DNA of 57,747 nucleotides from a virus (Duplodnaviria; Heunggongvirae; Uroviricota; Caudoviricetes). How positions within the stretch are numbered: position 1 is the stretch's first letter; every line of letters starts with the position of its first letter. Below the pieces are notes generated by a model. That model did not search any database. It saw only the letters and a list, made by a program, of their open reading frames with translations, and had not been told where the DNA came from. This document shows, piece after piece, positions 2,335 through 40,820 of the stretch. The DNA is taken from the IMG/VR virus record IMGVR_UViG_2917393062_000003, positions 1 through 57,747 of that record; one strand, given 5' to 3'. A program made the translations under genes and the position numbers.

Positions 2335-2572
2335 GAGTTAAAATCTCCTTCAGTGCATCATCATCGCCAGTATGAATTTCCGGCGCAATTCCCGTTTCAC
2401 CAGGTCCAACAAATACTGCCCGGCGATCTATCAGCCAACGTCCACGAATTTTTTGTGGTCTTGGTACGATATATCCAAGTTTTCCGTATTTCACCAGGGT
2501 AGTGTTTGTTATTGGGAGACTGAACCGTTTAGGTTTCCACTCGTCGAGCGTTATCAGGTACTGTTCGCTCAT
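2303..2572 (-). CDS. xis: excisionase-like protein
   Basis: about 89 aa directly upstream of int and overlapping it; ATG at 2572 with SD GGAGTG. Confidence 0.6.
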   Translation of the reverse strand: MSEQYLITLDEWKPKRFSLPITNTTLVKYGKLGYIVPRPQKIRGRWLIDRRAVFVGPGETGIAPEIHTGDDDALKEILTHVTEATKKQH

Positions 2573-2633
2573 GGTTATCACTCCGGAACGCGCCAGTTGC
2601 AGAATACCAACGACAACTGGCGACGGTTGAACA

Positions 2634-5114
2634 TTAAAAATCAGCCTGACTCGGGATCAGTTTTTGCCAGATTACTGAAACGTATTTCGCCTGGTGACGG
2701 GCATCATCCAGCGCATTGTGGCGCACGCCTTCAAATGGAATAACTGTTCTGGCATCGAAACCGATAGTTTTTCCCAGTTCAACGATTGTACGTACATCGC
2801 GATCGTTGTAGTAACGCCACGGGCAGGGGATGTTCAGGCGTTCGTACGAGGTTCGTAAAATAGTGTTGTCGAAAGTTGCACCATTGCCCCATACCTGAAC
2901 GAATTTTTCATCCGAGTACTCATTGATGAATTCCCGAAATTGAATAAGAGCGTCAACCAGTTTTACCTGATCAACTAAAATTGCAGATCTGGCTTCGCTG
3001 GACTGAGCAAGCCACCATTCGATGGTGGAACCATCAGGAACAGCCCCCGTGTCCATAGCGTCAACCAGGCTGATAACGATATAAAATGTTGGCCCGATTT
3101 CCCCGGTCTGCGGATCGAAGAACACAGCACCAATAACCACGATGGGGGCATTACTTTTTTTACCCATCGTTTCAAGGTCGATCATCAGGTGGTACCACAC
3201 TCTGCTGGTGGATGTGATAACGTGATGACCGTTCACCGCAATTAAGGGATCTGCTGTCTCGCCAGTTTCGCTATCGCTGGCGTGGTCCTGATAGCTGCCA
3301 GCATTCTCTTTGTGTGGATGTTCAGCGCCTTCCATTTCCTCCGGATCGTCTTCCTGAACTTCAACCTGATTCTCGTCATCGAATGTTTCCTGGTATGTTG
3401 CGTCGCCCATCACCGCGCCACAATCAGGGCAGTTGCCGCCACCGCTCTGGCCGCAGGCGGTGCAGACTTTTTCCGGCTTCTGTTGCGCTACTGGTTCAGG
3501 CTGTTTCGTTTCTGGCTCGTTTTGTTGCGCATTTGGGCTGTTTTGTTCCGCTTTCTGGTCGTTCTGTTCCGTTTCTTGCTGGTTCTGGTACACAGAATCG
3601 CGGGTCTGGATCCCATTAACCCATTTCGGATCATTCGGGTCGCTAATCCCTGCAACAAATTCACCACGTGATACTGCAAGCAGTTCATCGGCGTCAGGCT
3701 GGCTGATATTGGCTGCCTGCATAATTTTGTTTACTTCGTCAGCGGTAACTTTTACCGACTCTGGTTGTGCGATCGTGTCAGATGCACCAGTATTTTGTTG
3801 TGAACCTGAGTATGTACCGTTTTTGCGGGCAAAATATTCTTCTTTCGTGATTTCAGTAGCTCCCAAGGCCAGCGCTTTTTCCAGACCAGAAAGTTTGTTT
3901 GCGCGACCGTATTTTTCGCCGTCCTTATCGGTGAAAAGGAAGTAGAACGGCCCCTCACGCTCTACAGATGGTTCAGTTTCCAGCGTGCTTTCATTTTTTT
4001 GGGTATCAGATACTTCAGTTTCCACTGCATCAGTTTGTGCTGCTGACGGCTGGAGAATATCAGCAGTGTTCTGGTCTGTTTCTTCATCCTCAAACACGCC
4101 CTTTGTCGCCAGGTATTCAGTGATGTATTTGTTCAGTGCCACGGGATCTTTGTGAATGTCGAGCGGACGCTCACGGACAAGACCAAAAATAGTCTGACGG
4201 TTATAGCGAATGGCATCAGGCTGTTTGCGCATTGATGCGGAAATGCGCTTCCAGTCTTCGCGGTCTTTGGCGATAACTTCATTTTCTGCCCAGCGAAGGA
4301 TGTTACCGTCAATGCTTCCGGGGTCCGTATCACCAGGCCAGAGATAGCAGGCCAGCTCCCTGTCCAGCGCTTTCCATGTCTGCTTATATTCGCGACGAAT
4401 GGCATCAGTGGCAGGGTTGATTTTTTCTGCTGAATTTTCGGTGTTCTGTCGGTTGGTTCTGGCGCGGGCGAGATCAACAACAGACGTGTATTTCCCGGTT
4501 TCTTTGCGTTCGGCTTCGCGACGTTTTTTCCAGATGCGCATCTCCGCCTGAATTTCGGGCCATTTGGCACCTGGATTACATTTATGTTTAACCCACCCGA
4601 TGGCGAGCAGCTTAAGCTCTGAATACATGACGTTAACTTCAGGCATTTTCATCAGTGCCTCAACGATATGCCCGTCGAATGTTGCCATGTCCTCCTGCAA
4701 CAATTCCTGTGCACTAATCACCATATCAACGGTGATGTTTTCACATGTACCGAACTTAACCAGGACCGCGTTCTGTACTTCAAGGGACAGCTTGTCAAAA
4801 TTGACGTTCATCGGATCGGATTCTGGTTCGACCGGAATAAAGGAAGCGGATTCCTCATCCCAGCGGTTTTCCTGCATATATTCGGTATCCCAGGAGTCGA
4901 TAGCAGGGCGGGGCATGCCGGGTTTATCCTCGCAGACAAGAAATTTATAAGCGCAGTCCTGAGCAGCCGGATATTGCTCCAGGAATTGCCAGGTAAATTT
5001 GGCACGGGCGCGGCGTTCGTCACCGGCTTCAATGGCAGTGGCTACAGCAACTGCACCTTCTTCCTTTATTGCCTGTTCGTCCGGAATGGCGGCGCAAATA
5101 AAGACTTTACTCAT
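2634..5114 (-). CDS. RecE-like (exonuclease VIII family) protein with C-terminal DEDDh 3'-5' exonuclease domain
   Basis: 826 aa; central region LLAVSRGEFVAGISDPNDPKWVNGIQTRD...CTACGQSGGGNCPDCGAVMGDATYQETFD recalled from Rac RecE; C-terminus carries DEDDh motifs (MIDLETMG, WGNGATFDNTILR, HNALDDARH). Confidence 0.7.
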   Translation of the reverse strand: MSKVFICAAIPDEQAIKEEGAVAVATAIEAGDERRARAKFTWQFLEQYPAAQDCAYKFLVCEDKPGMPRPAIDSWDTEYMQENRWDEESASFIPVEPESDPMNVNFDKLSLEVQNAVLVKFGTCENITVDMVISAQELLQEDMATFDGHIVEALMKMPEVNVMYSELKLLAIGWVKHKCNPGAKWPEIQAEMRIWKKRREAERKETGKYTSVVDLARARTNRQNTENSAEKINPATDAIRREYKQTWKALDRELACYLWPGDTDPGSIDGNILRWAENEVIAKDREDWKRISASMRKQPDAIRYNRQTIFGLVRERPLDIHKDPVALNKYITEYLATKGVFEDEETDQNTADILQPSAAQTDAVETEVSDTQKNESTLETEPSVEREGPFYFLFTDKDGEKYGRANKLSGLEKALALGATEITKEEYFARKNGTYSGSQQNTGASDTIAQPESVKVTADEVNKIMQAANISQPDADELLAVSRGEFVAGISDPNDPKWVNGIQTRDSVYQNQQETEQNDQKAEQNSPNAQQNEPETKQPEPVAQQKPEKVCTACGQSGGGNCPDCGAVMGDATYQETFDDENQVEVQEDDPEEMEGAEHPHKENAGSYQDHASDSETGETADPLIAVNGHHVITSTSRVWYHLMIDLETMGKKSNAPIVVIGAVFFDPQTGEIGPTFYIVISLVDAMDTGAVPDGSTIEWWLAQSSEARSAILVDQVKLVDALIQFREFINEYSDEKFVQVWGNGATFDNTILRTSYERLNIPCPWRYYNDRDVRTIVELGKTIGFDARTVIPFEGVRHNALDDARHQAKYVSVIWQKLIPSQADF

Positions 5115-8148: not shown

Positions 8149-8376
8149 ATGTTTAAATCGGACGTAATTAATTTTTATGGGACGAAAGCCAAAGTAGCGA
8201 AAGCTGCTGGTGTTGATCCATCTGCTGTTTCTCAATGGGGGGAACTGGTTCCTGAAGGCCGCGCGATGCGCCTGCAAGAGGCATCCGGCGGGGAACTTCA
8301 GTACGACCCCAAAGTTTATGACGAATATCGTAAGGCAAAGCGGGCGGGGCGGTTGAACAATGAAAATCACCCCTGA
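8149..8376 (+). CDS. DicC/YdaS-like Cro-type regulator
   Basis: divergent from repressor; ATG at 8149 with SD GGAGGGG; motif GRAMRLQEASGGELQYDP. Confidence 0.6.
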   Translation: MFKSDVINFYGTKAKVAKAAGVDPSAVSQWGELVPEGRAMRLQEASGGELQYDPKVYDEYRKAKRAGRLNNENHP

Positions 8377-8911
8377 ACAGGTTTGTGAAGCTCTGGATGC
8401 CTGGGTATGCCGACCAGGAATGACACAGGAGCAGGCGACGATATTAATCACAGAAGCCTTCTGGGCACTGAAAGAACGCCCGAACATCGATGTTCAACGT
8501 GTCACGTTTGATGATGGCGCGGTTGATCAACGGGCGCTTGGTGTTAACCGGGTGAAGATATTCGAACGCTGGAAAGCTATCGACACCAGGGATAAGCGTG
8601 AAAAATTCACGGCGCTGATTCCGGCAATTATGGAGGCTATCCGGATAAGTGATTTCTGGTTGTATCGTGAAATTACTGACGGAAAAAGCATTACGTACAT
8701 GATCGCCGGGTTAAACAAAGAATATGGCGATGTGGTTGAGTCCGGTCTGCTTTTGGCAGATCCCGCTGTTGTGGAACGTGAGACTGACGAGCTTATAGAA
8801 AAAGCTATTGCTTTCAAGCATGCGTATCGTCAGCAATACCAACATTACTTTGCAGATAAACAAATGTCTGCCTGGGGTTCGTATGAGTATCGATGCACTA
8901 CGATGGGCTAA
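8360..8911 (+). CDS. hypothetical protein at the YdaT position of Rac-like early regions
   Basis: 183 aa; call is by gene order only (repressor, Cro-like, this ORF, O-like). Confidence 0.4.
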   Translation: MKITPEQVCEALDAWVCRPGMTQEQATILITEAFWALKERPNIDVQRVTFDDGAVDQRALGVNRVKIFERWKAIDTRDKREKFTALIPAIMEAIRISDFWLYREITDGKSITYMIAGLNKEYGDVVESGLLLADPAVVERETDELIEKAIAFKHAYRQQYQHYFADKQMSAWGSYEYRCTTMG

Positions 8912-9923
8912 AAAGGTGAAAACCGGCAGTTCATCCAGTAAGTCAGTATTGACCTGGCTTGCTGATATGTGCGGTGCCGATTTGTGTGCATACCCGTCAG
9001 TATCTGCACTGGCAGAAGTAACAGAACTAAACAAAAAAACTGTGCAGGACAGCTTACGACACCTGATGGAGATTGGGTTAATAGTTGATACCGGTGAGAG
9101 AAAAGGCCGAACAAAGCAAATTGTGGTGTACCGACTTATCGGTGTTGAAGAAAGTGTTGCTGAGCCTGAATACACCCAAAAACGGGAGTCTTTAAAGGTG
9201 GGTAAAATTGGTACTGTTAATAAAAACAGTGCCGAAAACGGTTATGTTTCAGCACCAAACAGACCCAAAAACGGAACTCTTTGCCGCATAGAAAATAACC
9301 AAAGACACCCAATTTTTCCATCAAAGACACCCAAAAACGGATCACGGAACCCAAAGGAACCAAAAGATCTAAACCCCACACATAACGCACGCGAGAGTGC
9401 TCCGATCAGTGATCGGGAAGTTTTGTCGCTACAGGCAACACCACCTGCATTCCTGGATGGCCTGAGCGAACCCATCGGAAAATTTCCGATGGCCGATGAC
9501 TGGCATCCGTCACGGGATTTTCGACGACGGGCTGCGTTGTGGGGGATGGCTCTGCCAGAGCCGGAATTTACACCTGCTGAACTTGCCGCATTCAGGGATT
9601 ACTGGACTGAGGAGGGTAAAGTTTTCACGCAGGTTCAGTGGGAGCAGAAATTCGCCCGTCACGTAAATCACGTCAGGGCGCAGGCTAAACCAGTCAGCAA
9701 GGGGGTAAACCATGCAGCAGCACCAGGTGGCACCGCATCACGGGCAGTTCAGGAAATTCGGGCAGCACGTGAGCAGTGGGAACGTGAAAACGGATTTATC
9801 AGCGACGGAAACGGCGTGGAAGCTGTGGGAACTCATGGGGGAGGTTTATTCGAACCGCTGGACCCAGAAGAACGGGGCCGCACCTTCGAAGCTCTGGATT
9901 GCACAGATTGGCGCGATGACTGA
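8883..9923 (+). CDS. replication initiation protein (O-like; N-terminal HTH, C-terminal DnaT-like region)
   Basis: N-terminal HTH SVSALAEVTELNKKTVQDSLRHL and C-terminal PEPEFTPAELAAFRDYWTEEGK; start chosen at internal ATG 8883. Confidence 0.55.
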   Translation: MSIDALRWAKKVKTGSSSSKSVLTWLADMCGADLCAYPSVSALAEVTELNKKTVQDSLRHLMEIGLIVDTGERKGRTKQIVVYRLIGVEESVAEPEYTQKRESLKVGKIGTVNKNSAENGYVSAPNRPKNGTLCRIENNQRHPIFPSKTPKNGSRNPKEPKDLNPTHNARESAPISDREVLSLQATPPAFLDGLSEPIGKFPMADDWHPSRDFRRRAALWGMALPEPEFTPAELAAFRDYWTEEGKVFTQVQWEQKFARHVNHVRAQAKPVSKGVNHAAAPGGTASRAVQEIRAAREQWERENGFISDGNGVEAVGTHGGGLFEPLDPEERGRTFEALDCTDWRDD

Positions 9924-10377
9924 GCAGCAAATCCGGCAGGTCTGCCGACAGTGCATGGACCGCTGCCGGGCGGGTGAAACATGGCCTCCGGACCTGGCTG
10001 AGTTTGTGGCGCTGATTTCGGAGAGCGGGGCAAATCCATTTGGTCTGACGGTGGATAACGTGATGGAGGAATATCGCCGCTGGCGCAATGAGTCCTGGCG
10101 ATACGACGGAAGCGATAAATATCCGTGGCCTCAGCCCGTGCTGTATCACATTTGTCTCGAGATGCGTTCAAAGGGGATTGAGCGGCAGATGACCGAAGGG
10201 GAGTTAAAACGGCTTGCAGAACGGCAGCTGACGAAATGGGCAAAGCATGTTGGTAATGGCCTCAGCGTTCCGCCTGTCCGGCGGCAACTGGCAGCACCAG
10301 AACGCCCGTCGGGGCCAACACCAATTGAGTTGCTGAAACGGGAGTATGAACGCCGGAAGGCAGCTGGTTTTGTATGA
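9712..10377 (+). CDS. replication protein P-like (helicase loader family); start uncertain
   Basis: C-terminal pattern WPPDLAEFVALIS...YPWPQPVLYHICLEM...ELKRLAERQL parallels lambda P; alternative starts at 9835 or 9916. Confidence 0.5.
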   Translation: MQQHQVAPHHGQFRKFGQHVSSGNVKTDLSATETAWKLWELMGEVYSNRWTQKNGAAPSKLWIAQIGAMTEQQIRQVCRQCMDRCRAGETWPPDLAEFVALISESGANPFGLTVDNVMEEYRRWRNESWRYDGSDKYPWPQPVLYHICLEMRSKGIERQMTEGELKRLAERQLTKWAKHVGNGLSVPPVRRQLAAPERPSGPTPIELLKREYERRKAAGFV

Positions 10378-38659: not shown

Positions 38660-39385
38660 ATGAATGTGTGGGTCACTGCCGAATCTGCCTGGATGGACAT
38701 GATTAAGTGGGAGAAGTGCGAATACATTGCTCCACAGCATGAGCTGAAAACATATCCCATGTGGGTCGGCGTCGACCTTGCTCATAAGATTGATATCTGT
38801 GCGGCGGCAAAACTCTGGCGAACCGATAACGGACATGTTCATGCCGATTTTAAATTCTGGCTTCCGGAAGGACGGCTGGAACGATGCTCGCGGCAGCAGG
38901 CAGAACTTTACCGGAAGTGGGCAGAGATGGGGAAGCTCATCCTGACGGATGGTGATGTTATCGATCATGCTCAGATAAAAAGTGACTTACTGGAATGGAT
39001 TGGCGGTGAAAACCTCAGGGAACTGGGATTTGACCCGTGGAGCGCAATGCAGTTCAGTCTGGCGCTGGCTGAAGAAGGGATACCGCTGGTGGAAGTTCCG
39101 CAGACGGTCCGCAATCTGTCAGAGGCTATGAAGGAAACGGAATCACTGGTTTATGCCGGACGTTTCCACCACAGTAATCATCCGGTTATGAACTGGATGA
39201 TGTCTAACGTTACGGTAAAACCGGACAAAAACGACAATATCTTCCCGAATAAATCCACGCCGGAAGCCAAAATCGACGGCCCTGTTGCGATGTTTACAGC
39301 AATGAGCCGGATGCTGGTCAATGGCGGTGAACCGGAGCCGGATCTGTCTGAACATCTGGTCAGCGTGGGTATCCGTTCGCTTTAA
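38660..39385 (+). pseudogene. terminase large subunit, C-terminal part (continues the frame from 38642; would fuse to 22185-23212 on precise excision)
   Basis: 241 aa aligning with the last ~240 aa of satellite TerL; in-frame upstream codons encode NILTKH before MNVWV. Confidence 0.8.
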
Positions 39386-39396
39386 CCGAGGGCATT

Positions 39397-39579
39397 ATGT
39401 TTCTGATAATTCTCACGCCACTGGTGGGCGTGCTGGGGGCGCTTTTGCTGTCGTATGGCGCATGGCTGATTTATCCCCCGGCAGGTTTTGTTGTTGCAGG
39501 GGCGCTGTGCCTGTTCTGGTCGTGGCTGGTTGCGCGTTATCTCGATCGCGGTCAGCGGGTCGCCTCCGGAGGTGAGTAA
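39397..39579 (+). CDS. small membrane protein
   Basis: 60 aa, hydrophobic, SD GAGGG; between terL and portal. Confidence 0.4.
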
Positions 39580-40820
39580 TGTTTTTCCAGGGGCTTTTTC
39601 AGCGCAAAAATAACACTCCCGTTACAACACCCGGGATGCTTGCGGAAGAGCTGGGATTGTCATACGACACCTATACCGGAAAGCGGATCAGTAGTCAGCG
39701 GGCCATGCGGCTGACGGCGGTGTATTCCTGCGTCAGGGTGCTGGCGGAGTCTGTTGGTATGCTGCCCTGCAGCCTCTACAAAATCACCGGCACCCTTAAA
39801 ACACGGGCGGTGGATGAACGACTGCATAAGCTGGTTTCAGCCAAACCCAATGGCTACATGACGCCGCAGGAATTCTGGGAGCTGGTTATCGTCTGCCTGT
39901 GTCTGCGGGGTAATTTTTACGCTTACAAGGTGAAGGCGCTGGGGGAAGTTGTGGAGCTTCTTCCGATAGATCCGGGTTGTGTGGAACCGAAGCTGAACAG
40001 CCAGTGGCAGCCGGTTTATCAGGTGACGTTTCCGGATGGTTCCGTGGATGTGTTGACTCAGGATGAAATCTGGCATGTGCGTACTCTGACGCTGGACGGA
40101 CTGGTCGGGCTGAATCCCATTGCGTATGCGCGTGAGGCCATTTCACTGGCAGCGGCAACTGAGGAGCACGGCGCCAGGTTGTTTGGTAACGGTGCTGTGA
40201 CATCCGGTGTGTTGCGTACGGAACAAAAGCTCACGCCGGATGCTTATGAGCGCATGAAGAGGGATTTTGAGGAGCGTCATCTTGGGCTGGGTAATGCGCA
40301 CCGTCCGATGATTCTGGAAATGGGGCTGGACTGGAAGCCGGTGGCACTGAATGCCGAGGACAGTCAGTTCCTGGAAACCCGCAAGTTTCAGCTGGAAGAA
40401 ATCTGTCGTCTTTTCCGCGTGCCACTGCATATGGTGCAGAACACTGACCGCGCCACCTTCAACAATATTGAAGAGCTGGGGCTTGGTTTTATTAACTATT
40501 CCCTTGTGCCGTATCTGACCCGTATTGAACAGCGGATCAATACAGGGCTGGTCAGGGAGAGTAAAAAGGGAAAATTTTACGCCAAATTTAATGCCGGAGC
40601 GTTGTTGCGTGGTGACATGAAATCCCGCTTTGAAGCGTATGCCACGGGGATTAACTGGGGGATTTATTCCCCTAATGACTGCCGTGATCTGGAAGATATG
40701 AACCCTCGCCCGGGCGGTGATGTGTATCTGACGCCGATGAACATGACCACCAGACCCTCTGCTGGCGATGACAACGGTAAGAAAAAGGAGAGTGGAGATG
40801 CAGACAAAACAGCGTCTTGA
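39579..40820 (+). CDS. portal protein (prophage)
   Basis: 413 aa; SD GGAGGTGAG; position and length typical of HK97-type portal. Confidence 0.8.
   Translation: MFFQGLFQRKNNTPVTTPGMLAEELGLSYDTYTGKRISSQRAMRLTAVYSCVRVLAESVGMLPCSLYKITGTLKTRAVDERLHKLVSAKPNGYMTPQEFWELVIVCLCLRGNFYAYKVKALGEVVELLPIDPGCVEPKLNSQWQPVYQVTFPDGSVDVLTQDEIWHVRTLTLDGLVGLNPIAYAREAISLAAATEEHGARLFGNGAVTSGVLRTEQKLTPDAYERMKRDFEERHLGLGNAHRPMILEMGLDWKPVALNAEDSQFLETRKFQLEEICRLFRVPLHMVQNTDRATFNNIEELGLGFINYSLVPYLTRIEQRINTGLVRESKKGKFYAKFNAGALLRGDMKSRFEAYATGINWGIYSPNDCRDLEDMNPRPGGDVYLTPMNMTTRPSAGDDNGKKKESGDADKTAS

Follow-up and report, generated by a model that had tools for sequence, protein, structure and literature searches.

Introduction

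In phage lambda, the initiator gene O is followed by the helicase-loader gene P, and the two genes share four nucleotides (O 38686-39585, P 39582-40283). Much longer out-of-frame overlaps with partitioned constraint occur in other phage genes, i.e., phiX174 D/E and A/B, and lambda Rz/Rz1. Here we examine a replication module in the caudoviricete record IMGVR_UViG_2917393062_000003, whose 57,747 nucleotides (nt) are referred to as the window. In this window, as in lambda, an initiator-like gene precedes a gene for a lambda P-like helicase loader, downstream of a cro/cII-like region. The longest open reading frame (ORF) of the loader starts at 9712 and runs out of frame over the last 212 nt of the initiator gene (9712-9923), whereas the overlap in lambda is 4 nt. 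An overlap of up to 212 nt had been proposed in an initial annotation, which left open whether the loader starts there or further downstream; its coordinates were correct, and both ORFs were confirmed.

Lambda P has been divided into four domains, I (residues 1-40), II (41-118), III (119-192) and IV (193-233), the first of which is a flexible 'lasso' that its authors speculate to engage lambda O (PMC12661323). Deletion of lambda P residues 9-86 abolished its activities (PMC3640518). A lambda O' read-through product that ends inside P has been described in early reports, together with toxicity of O-36P and O-63P constructs (PMC3640518). The Rac ydaU/ydaV region and the PPompW prophages of Escherichia coli (E. 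coli) are 91-94% identical to the window and have the same gene order (dicA / dicC / ydaT-like / initiator / loader), but their deposited annotations give the loader as a protein of 153 or 140 amino acids (aa). In the literature on ydaU/ydaV, on PPompW, on DnaT with replication protein P and on lambdoid O-like/P-like overlaps, we found no description of this overlap.

Position and conservation of the loader start

Relative to the initiator, the loader is read in the +1 frame, which a TAA at 9706-9708 closes upstream and which is open from 9709 to the stop codon of the loader at 10375-10377. Four in-frame ATG codons, at 9712, 9835, 9916 and 9955, would give proteins of 221, 180, 153 and 140 aa, and the corresponding overlaps with the initiator ORF are 212, 89 and 8 nt and none. 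A good Shine-Dalgarno (SD) sequence is present only at 9712, and the remaining ATG codons have a weak one or none. The SD, which the initial annotation had already recognized, has an anti-SD duplex energy of -11.8 kcal/mol, versus -4.2 kcal/mol for 9835, where a weak GGGA motif lies 4 nt 5' of the codon for Met42. Sequence inspection revealed no SD in front of 9916. The protein predicted from 9712 includes the sequences MQQHQVAPHHGQFR... and ...TETAWK.

Thirty-nine homologous loci were analyzed. The overlap is found in the same relative frame in 37 of them (36 fetched loci and the window itself), from about 20 genera of enterobacteria, and 139 stop codons occur in the third frame of the overlap stretches. 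In all 37 loci, the initiator-frame codon that holds the upstream ATG is NAT and never NAC (CAT 20, AAT 14, TAT 2, GAT 1), so that the encoded residue is His in 20 loci, Asn in 14, Tyr in two and Asp in one. The following codon always starts with G, encoding Ala, Val, Glu or Gly. In the rest of each of these genes taken together, NAT accounts for 0.49 of the NAY codons, and an invariant NAT would arise by chance with a probability of about 5e-6 over 17 lineages, defined as having loader proteins less than 70% identical to each other and only approximately independent.

Almost all of the 37 loci have a GGAGG/GGGGG/GAGGT-like motif at -7 to -12, while the initiator residues encoded at this motif vary (GG, GE, EV, RG, RV, KG). 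What is conserved at the upstream start is a nucleotide signal and not the initiator amino acids. The equivalent of 9712 is also the only start codon upstream of loader residue W36 that aligns across the family. We consider it likely that loader translation starts at 9712, giving a dual-coding overlap of 212 nt, and the loader coding sequence (CDS) certainly extends upstream of 9835.

The two loci that lack an overlapping initiator, L030 and L038, carry solitary P-like genes beside host genes. In L030 this gene (2492-3118) adjoins a ttcA-like gene, identified by eye from the translation, and in L038 (2474-3043) it adjoins a gene resembling a phosphotransferase system (PTS) transporter. Both are likely prophage remnants with an intact loader ORF, and given this position next to host genes we rejected them as counter-examples to the overlap. 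P-like genes interrupted by a stop or frameshift in the N-terminal region were seen in L037 (Leclercia, around 2686) and L041 (Candidatus Symbiopectobacterium, 2204-2581), and these copies are probably pseudogenes.

Partition of constraint between the two frames

Codon-phase nucleotide diversity was determined for 14 non-redundant loci of at least 62% identity. Diversity peaks at the third codon position of the initiator up to about 9801 and at the third position of the loader from about 9802. Periodicity in the loader phase is already present in 9802-9831 and continues through 9802-9921. At 9820-9923, diversity at the three loader codon positions is 0.145/0.119/0.410, which matches the 0.160/0.103/0.515 of the region that encodes only the loader. 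The same switch of phase from initiator to loader is visible in the polymorphic sites of 66 distinct close variants, which make up 21-24% of positions in the overlap versus 32-42% in the flanks. These variants come from a scan of viral contigs that gave only relatives of 95-99% identity, which were used for polymorphism counts and added no new lineages.

Amino acid identities follow the same division. Across 26 loci, the initiator and loader frames have identities of 30% and 17%, respectively, in 9712-9801 (zone B), and of 31% and 52% in 9802-9923 (zone C). Zone B encodes a helix of the initiator tail together with loader residues 1-30, which are variable and probably disordered. Zone C encodes loader residues 31-70 (AWxLWExMGEIYSNRWxxKNG..P..LWIAQIG) and the disordered acidic end of the initiator. 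Thus, where one frame encodes its ordered element, the other encodes a disordered part, and the border between the two arrangements, at about 9790-9800, coincides with the phase switch. A selection signature of its own is clear for the initiator frame in zone B and for the loader frame in zone C.

The initiator frame is open through the conserved N-terminal region of the loader in all 37 loci, with its stop codon 53-125 nt beyond the Met42 codon. Synonymous resampling of the loader codons gave a probability of about 0.235 per locus that the initiator frame remains open in zone C, corresponding to about 1e-12 over the 17 lineages. Because chance openness is this improbable, the initiator extension appears to be maintained by selection. 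Reading of the sequence and the alignment indicates that many initiator residues that appear conserved in zone C are forced by invariant codons of the loader. Examples are [L/M/V]-[D/G/A] opposite Trp TGG and E-E-[R/W] opposite Lys-Asn-Gly. Judged by these sequence patterns, 9712-9923 appears to be a genuine dual-coding region in which both frames code.

The loader and its conserved N-terminus

The loader matches the Pfam family Phage_lambda_P (PF06992) with 60.6 bits (cut-off 26, E 2.1e-16), with residues 56-188 aligned to positions 28-161 of the 162-position profile. Its homologues in the protein search come in four lengths, i.e., about 221-223, 180-181, 153 and 140 aa. Alignments with homologues of 215-223 aa extend over 96-100% of the query even at identities as low as 50%. 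Residues 35-68 (AWxLWExMGEIYSNRWxxKNG..P..LW) rank with the best-conserved parts of the family. Nearly invariant in the alignments are M42, I45, R49, W50, K53, N54, G55, P58 and W62, all of which are encoded upstream of 9916. W39 and Met42 are each at least 90% conserved in the homologues, and the motif A35-W36-x-L38-W39-E40 precedes Met42 in homologues down to 44% identity, as seen in the 37 translated loci. The Met42 codon is CTG (Leu) in two loci, L023 and L026. The TGG triplets of W36 and W39 are retained while the initiator-frame residues at these positions vary among V, L and M.

An AlphaFold2 model of the 221-aa loader, built with a 42-sequence alignment, has a mean predicted local distance difference test (pLDDT) score of 75.5, with residues 1-26 below 50. 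A helix of residues 25-46 (pLDDT about 86) spans Met42, and two further helices (48-54 and 60-67) lie before Met69. The top matches of this model in the PDB are the lambda P chains of 9oa1, with a probability of 1.0 and a template modeling (TM) score of about 0.48. The best is 9oa1_Z, the only fully resolved lambda P chain, with 217 aligned columns, and the modest TM score would fit a flexible multi-domain chain. The family profile of the loader matches the lambda P chains 8v9t and 8v9s (E 2e-6), with profile positions 68-189 aligned to lambda P residues 80-202, so that loader residue ~70 falls opposite lambda P residue 80. By these profile and fold matches, the 221-aa form is colinear with lambda P, which has 233 aa. 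A direct BLASTP comparison of the two proteins was discarded as a basis for colinearity, since it aligns residues 86-193 only; the N-terminal part of a further alignment with lambda P is unreliable. A loader starting at 9916 would, by this correspondence, lack the counterpart of lambda P domain I and most of domain II (lambda P residues 1-79).

The coordinates of the two genes, the candidate starts and the two zones of the overlap are collected in Table 1.

Table 1. Features of the initiator-loader overlap in the window, with the basis or main characteristic of each.
Feature	Positions	Strand	Remark
Initiator-like gene, 346 aa	8883..9923	+	ATG 8883, stop TGA 9921-9923
Lambda P-like helicase-loader gene, long form, 221 aa	9712..10377	+	Most likely the real CDS
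Shine-Dalgarno AGGGGG of the loader gene, within the initiator ORF	9700..9705	+	6-nt spacing to ATG 9712
Proposed loader start codon	9712..9714	+	xAT-Gxx in the initiator frame
Overlap zone B, initiator-frame constraint dominant	9712..9801	+	Codon-phase diversity, aa identity, AlphaFold2
Overlap zone C, loader-frame constraint dominant	9802..9923	+	Codon-phase diversity, aa identity, resampling
Met42, most likely an internal methionine	9835..9837	+	Weak SD; CTG in two loci; conserved residues upstream
Met69, internal methionine; RefSeq/PGAP start in E. coli (153 aa)	9916..9918	+	Conserved residues upstream

Alternative starts and products

Several observations weigh against a start at 9712. 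Purifying selection specific to loader residues 1-30 is not clearly visible (identity 17%, pLDDT below 50). Given the initiator protein, the loader frame would be open over codons 2-36 with a chance probability of 0.62 per locus (5e-5 over the 17 lineages), so that an open frame over residues 1-30 is fairly likely by chance. For this reason, openness upstream of W36 was abandoned as proof of translation: it is weak once conditioned on the initiator protein. Because residues 1-30 provide so little, it is the conserved ATG with its SD that places the exact start. For loader codons 1-30, and also for initiator codons 308-346, the signal is limited to an open frame and lower overall variability. 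Furthermore, the lineage independence behind the small probabilities is only approximate, Met42 is highly conserved, many 'replication protein P' entries at NCBI have 180-181 aa, and the RefSeq E. coli records use the 9916 equivalent.

If the loader started at Met42 (ATG 9835), it would comprise 180 aa, and the open frame in front of Met42 would be a chance feature that is not translated. The initial annotation offered this start as a way to avoid the overlap, but 89 nt would still be shared. The conservation of Met42, the number of NCBI entries of matching length, the poor conservation of residues 1-30 and the chance openness of about 0.62 per locus are all in line with it. Nevertheless, such a start is unlikely, since conservation reaches upstream of Met42 to W36, W39 and the AWxLWE motif, with TGG kept where the initiator residues vary, and loader-phase periodicity already occurs in 9802-9831. 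Moreover, the Met42 codon is CTG in two loci, its SD is weak, and the predicted helix of residues 25-46 would be cut. Met42 could also serve as an internal initiation site that yields a shorter isoform in addition to the full-length protein from 9712. This would agree with its high conservation and the weak GGGA motif 4 nt upstream, and nested isoforms are common in phage genes. We regard a second isoform as quite improbable, because the codon specifies Leu in two lineages, its SD is poor and no data require a second product.

A start at 9916 or 9955, as used in the RefSeq and PPompW annotations, would reduce the overlap to 8 nt or nothing. Short overlaps are usual for coupled genes, the 4 nt of lambda O/P being an example, and the initial annotation had suggested ATGA coupling at 9916. 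The junction reads ATGACTGA, however, in which the initiator stop is the second TGA and the TGA within ATGA is off the initiator frame, leaving an 8-nt overlap. The conservation data already contradict these downstream starts, as residues 42-68 are among the most conserved of the family; alignment of P-family N-termini, the check proposed in the initial annotation, placed the beginning of conserved sequence near nt 9814 (A35-W36) and not at 9916. The Pfam match begins at residue 56 (nt 9877), loader-phase periodicity runs through 9802-9921, and 9916 has no SD in front of it. The resulting protein would also have nothing that corresponds to lambda P residues 1-79, which lambda P needs for its function (PMC3640518). 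We therefore give these two starts very little credence. The alignments, the Pfam match from residue 56 and the loader-frame periodicity from about 9800 instead support the long overlap.

The +1 position of the loader frame would be compatible with a programmed +1 frameshift that yields an initiator-loader fusion, and in a small number of database proteins PF06992 is fused to other domains (P0027, P0086, P0107). Yet an ATG and an SD are conserved at the head of the loader frame, the initiator frame runs uninterrupted to a conserved stop region, and no slippery site or structure was found. RNA folding of 9665-9765 was no more stable than that of shuffled sequences (z-score +0.57), giving no signal of a coupling hairpin or frameshift stimulator. 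A frameshift product is thus barely credible.

A start at 9712 would lead to the following arrangement. In this lambdoid (Rac/PPompW-type) prophage replication module, ribosomes would initiate de novo at the SD embedded in the initiator coding sequence and translate the loader from ATG 9712, reading its first 70 codons +1 over the 70 codons that end the initiator gene. Nucleotides 9712-9800 would carry a conserved helix in the initiator frame and, in the loader frame, a variable, disordered N-terminus that matches the lambda P domain I 'lasso' in position. Nucleotides 9800-9923 would carry, in the loader frame, the first part of the conserved helical domain that corresponds to lambda P domain II and, in the initiator frame, the disordered acidic end of the initiator. 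Actual ribosomal initiation at 9712 is what the conserved signals of the DNA point to.

Domains and C-terminal tail of the initiator

The initiator matches the DnaT-like single-stranded DNA (ssDNA)-binding domain (Pfam PF17948) at residues 201-268 with 65.9 bits (cut-off 25, E 2.7e-18). A Pfam match to HTH_36 is below the cut-off, and the Pfam scan gave no match to Phage_rep_O (PF04492) at E <= 0.01. Residues 194-279 match positions 82-167 of NCBIfam PRK02854 with 94 bits, versus a DnaT equivalog cut-off of 201. This segment corresponds to the C-terminal ssDNA-binding region of E. coli DnaT, but the domain alone is shared, and the N-terminal helix-turn-helix (HTH) and the C-terminal tail of the initiator are unrelated to DnaT. 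Close relatives are annotated as 'DnaT-like ssDNA-binding domain-containing protein' or 'phage replication protein'. Going by these matches, the 'O-like' label of the initial annotation needs qualification: the initiator is analogous to lambda O in gene position and presumably in role, but it is not a member of the lambda O family and has HTH and DnaT domains instead of Phage_rep_O.

The AlphaFold2 model of the initiator has a mean pLDDT of 54. It shows a winged HTH (residues 3-85), a disordered linker (87-195), the DnaT domain (200-268, pLDDT 80-91), a tail helix (287-302, nt 9741-9788, RAVQEIRAAREQWERE) and a disordered acidic end (307-346). Within the region that encodes the disordered linker (9169-9348), iteron-like direct repeats were observed in three copies, at 9169-9193, 9258-9282 and 9324-9348, with the core ACCCAAAAACGG. 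The sequence CAAAGACACCCAA is present at 9300-9312 and 9322-9334, also within the initiator gene. The iteron-like repeats are probably a replication origin inside the initiator gene, as in lambda.

The C-terminal tail of about 70 residues, with the pattern S-x-A-x-Q-Q-I-R-A-A-R-E-x-W-E-R ... G-x-H-G-G-N-L-F-E-P-L-D-x-E-E-R, is common to initiators that otherwise differ. It ends proteins with at least five types of body, i.e., HTH_36 plus DnaT, DUF1376, HTH_36/DnaD_N, Phage_rep_O (L020) and an unassigned type. The E. coli homologues of the initiator share only the half that consists of DnaT domain and tail, at 85-92% identity, and have differing N-terminal domains.

Comparison with lambda O suggests how the tail could have arisen. 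Lambda O ends 27 residues past a KLRDKW motif, right at the ATG of P. An initiator of the HTH_36/DnaD_N type (L021) ends in a segment that, by eye, resembles the C-terminus of lambda O. In this protein the ATG of P lies 13 residues past KLRDKW, after which at least 70 further residues follow. Because lambda O ends at the ATG of P while the L021-type protein runs on past it, we infer that the tail may be an extension that was overprinted on the part of the loader gene coding for its N-terminus, and that tail and loader may travel as a unit.

Annotation of the loader and neighboring genes

In the public records compared, which include L001, L002, L003, L042 and L043, the loader is annotated as a protein of 153 aa (the 9916 equivalent) in RefSeq E. 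coli U90 and Xuzhou21, in Rac-SA53 and in pPE4, and as a protein of 140 aa (the 9955 equivalent) in the PPompW records. Other NCBI entries have 180-181 or 221 aa; those of 180-181 aa would, by entry length, correspond to the Met42 start. Every inspected record with CDS coordinates starts the loader 68 or 81 codons too late. NCBIfam was considered as an explanation for the shorter starts chosen by the Prokaryotic Genome Annotation Pipeline (PGAP) and was dropped, as a scan of the loader gave no NCBIfam family at E <= 0.01. Of 5426 complete E. coli genomes, 1256 carry the loader gene.

Pfam assigns the ORF on the upstream side of the module to the YdaT family and the gene on its downstream side to DUF977. 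The YdaT_toxin-family ORF (8360-8911) overlaps the start of the initiator gene (8883) by 29 nt, which is a second out-of-frame overlap in the same operon, and the PPompW records annotate this overlap identically. One record, L003 (PP818812.1, 'Actinobacillus phage vB_Apl-pPE4', host Actinobacillus pleuropneumoniae), shows 94% DNA identity and 97% loader-protein identity to the E. coli-type region, and its host assignment looks odd.

Relation to known overlaps and implications

The locus resembles lambda O-P in that the loader is a Phage_lambda_P member colinear with lambda P and in that the likely origin (iterons) lies within the initiator gene. It differs by the additional conserved tail of about 70 residues that is read over the loader N-terminus. 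A possible parallel exists in lambda itself, where translation shows no further stop in the O frame for 35 codons beyond its UGA, a stretch that reaches into the coding sequence of P (L004 1084-1190). Lambda O' likewise prolongs an initiator polypeptide, in the O frame, into the DNA that codes for the N-terminus of P, but it needs read-through of UGA, and its reality and role are unclear, whereas the extension described here is the normal predicted product, spans 70 codons and is conserved. Lambda O' may be a relative of the extended initiator tail.

With phiX174 D/E and A/B and with lambda Rz/Rz1, the locus shares the derivation of two proteins from one stretch of DNA and the placement of an ordered part over a disordered or variable part. 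In contrast to these cases, it is a terminal overlap of neighboring genes and not an embedded gene, and the two products are presumed partners. That the overlap is a fresh instance of a known phenomenon, the long out-of-frame overlap of phage genes, in a lambda-type replication module, is well supported.

The initiator tail and the loader N-terminus may be the parts where the two proteins meet, and the overlap would keep tail and loader together as one exchangeable unit. A more far-reaching and tentative idea, which we would not favor at present, is that the overlap welds the recognition surfaces of initiator and loader (the tail helix, and the lasso with domain II) into a recombination-proof cassette that can be grafted onto unrelated origin-binding bodies, with a tail that arose by overprinting and with the 4-nt junction of lambda and possibly O' as relatives.

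For work with these proteins, the position of the start matters, as the late annotated starts drop the counterpart of lambda P domains I and II, the region needed for lambda P function (PMC3640518). Expressing or modeling the annotated protein means working with a truncated loader. Furthermore, the overlap provides a clean partition of constraint between two frames, and it suggests how lambdoid replication modules hold a matched initiator tail and loader together while exchanging origin-binding domains.

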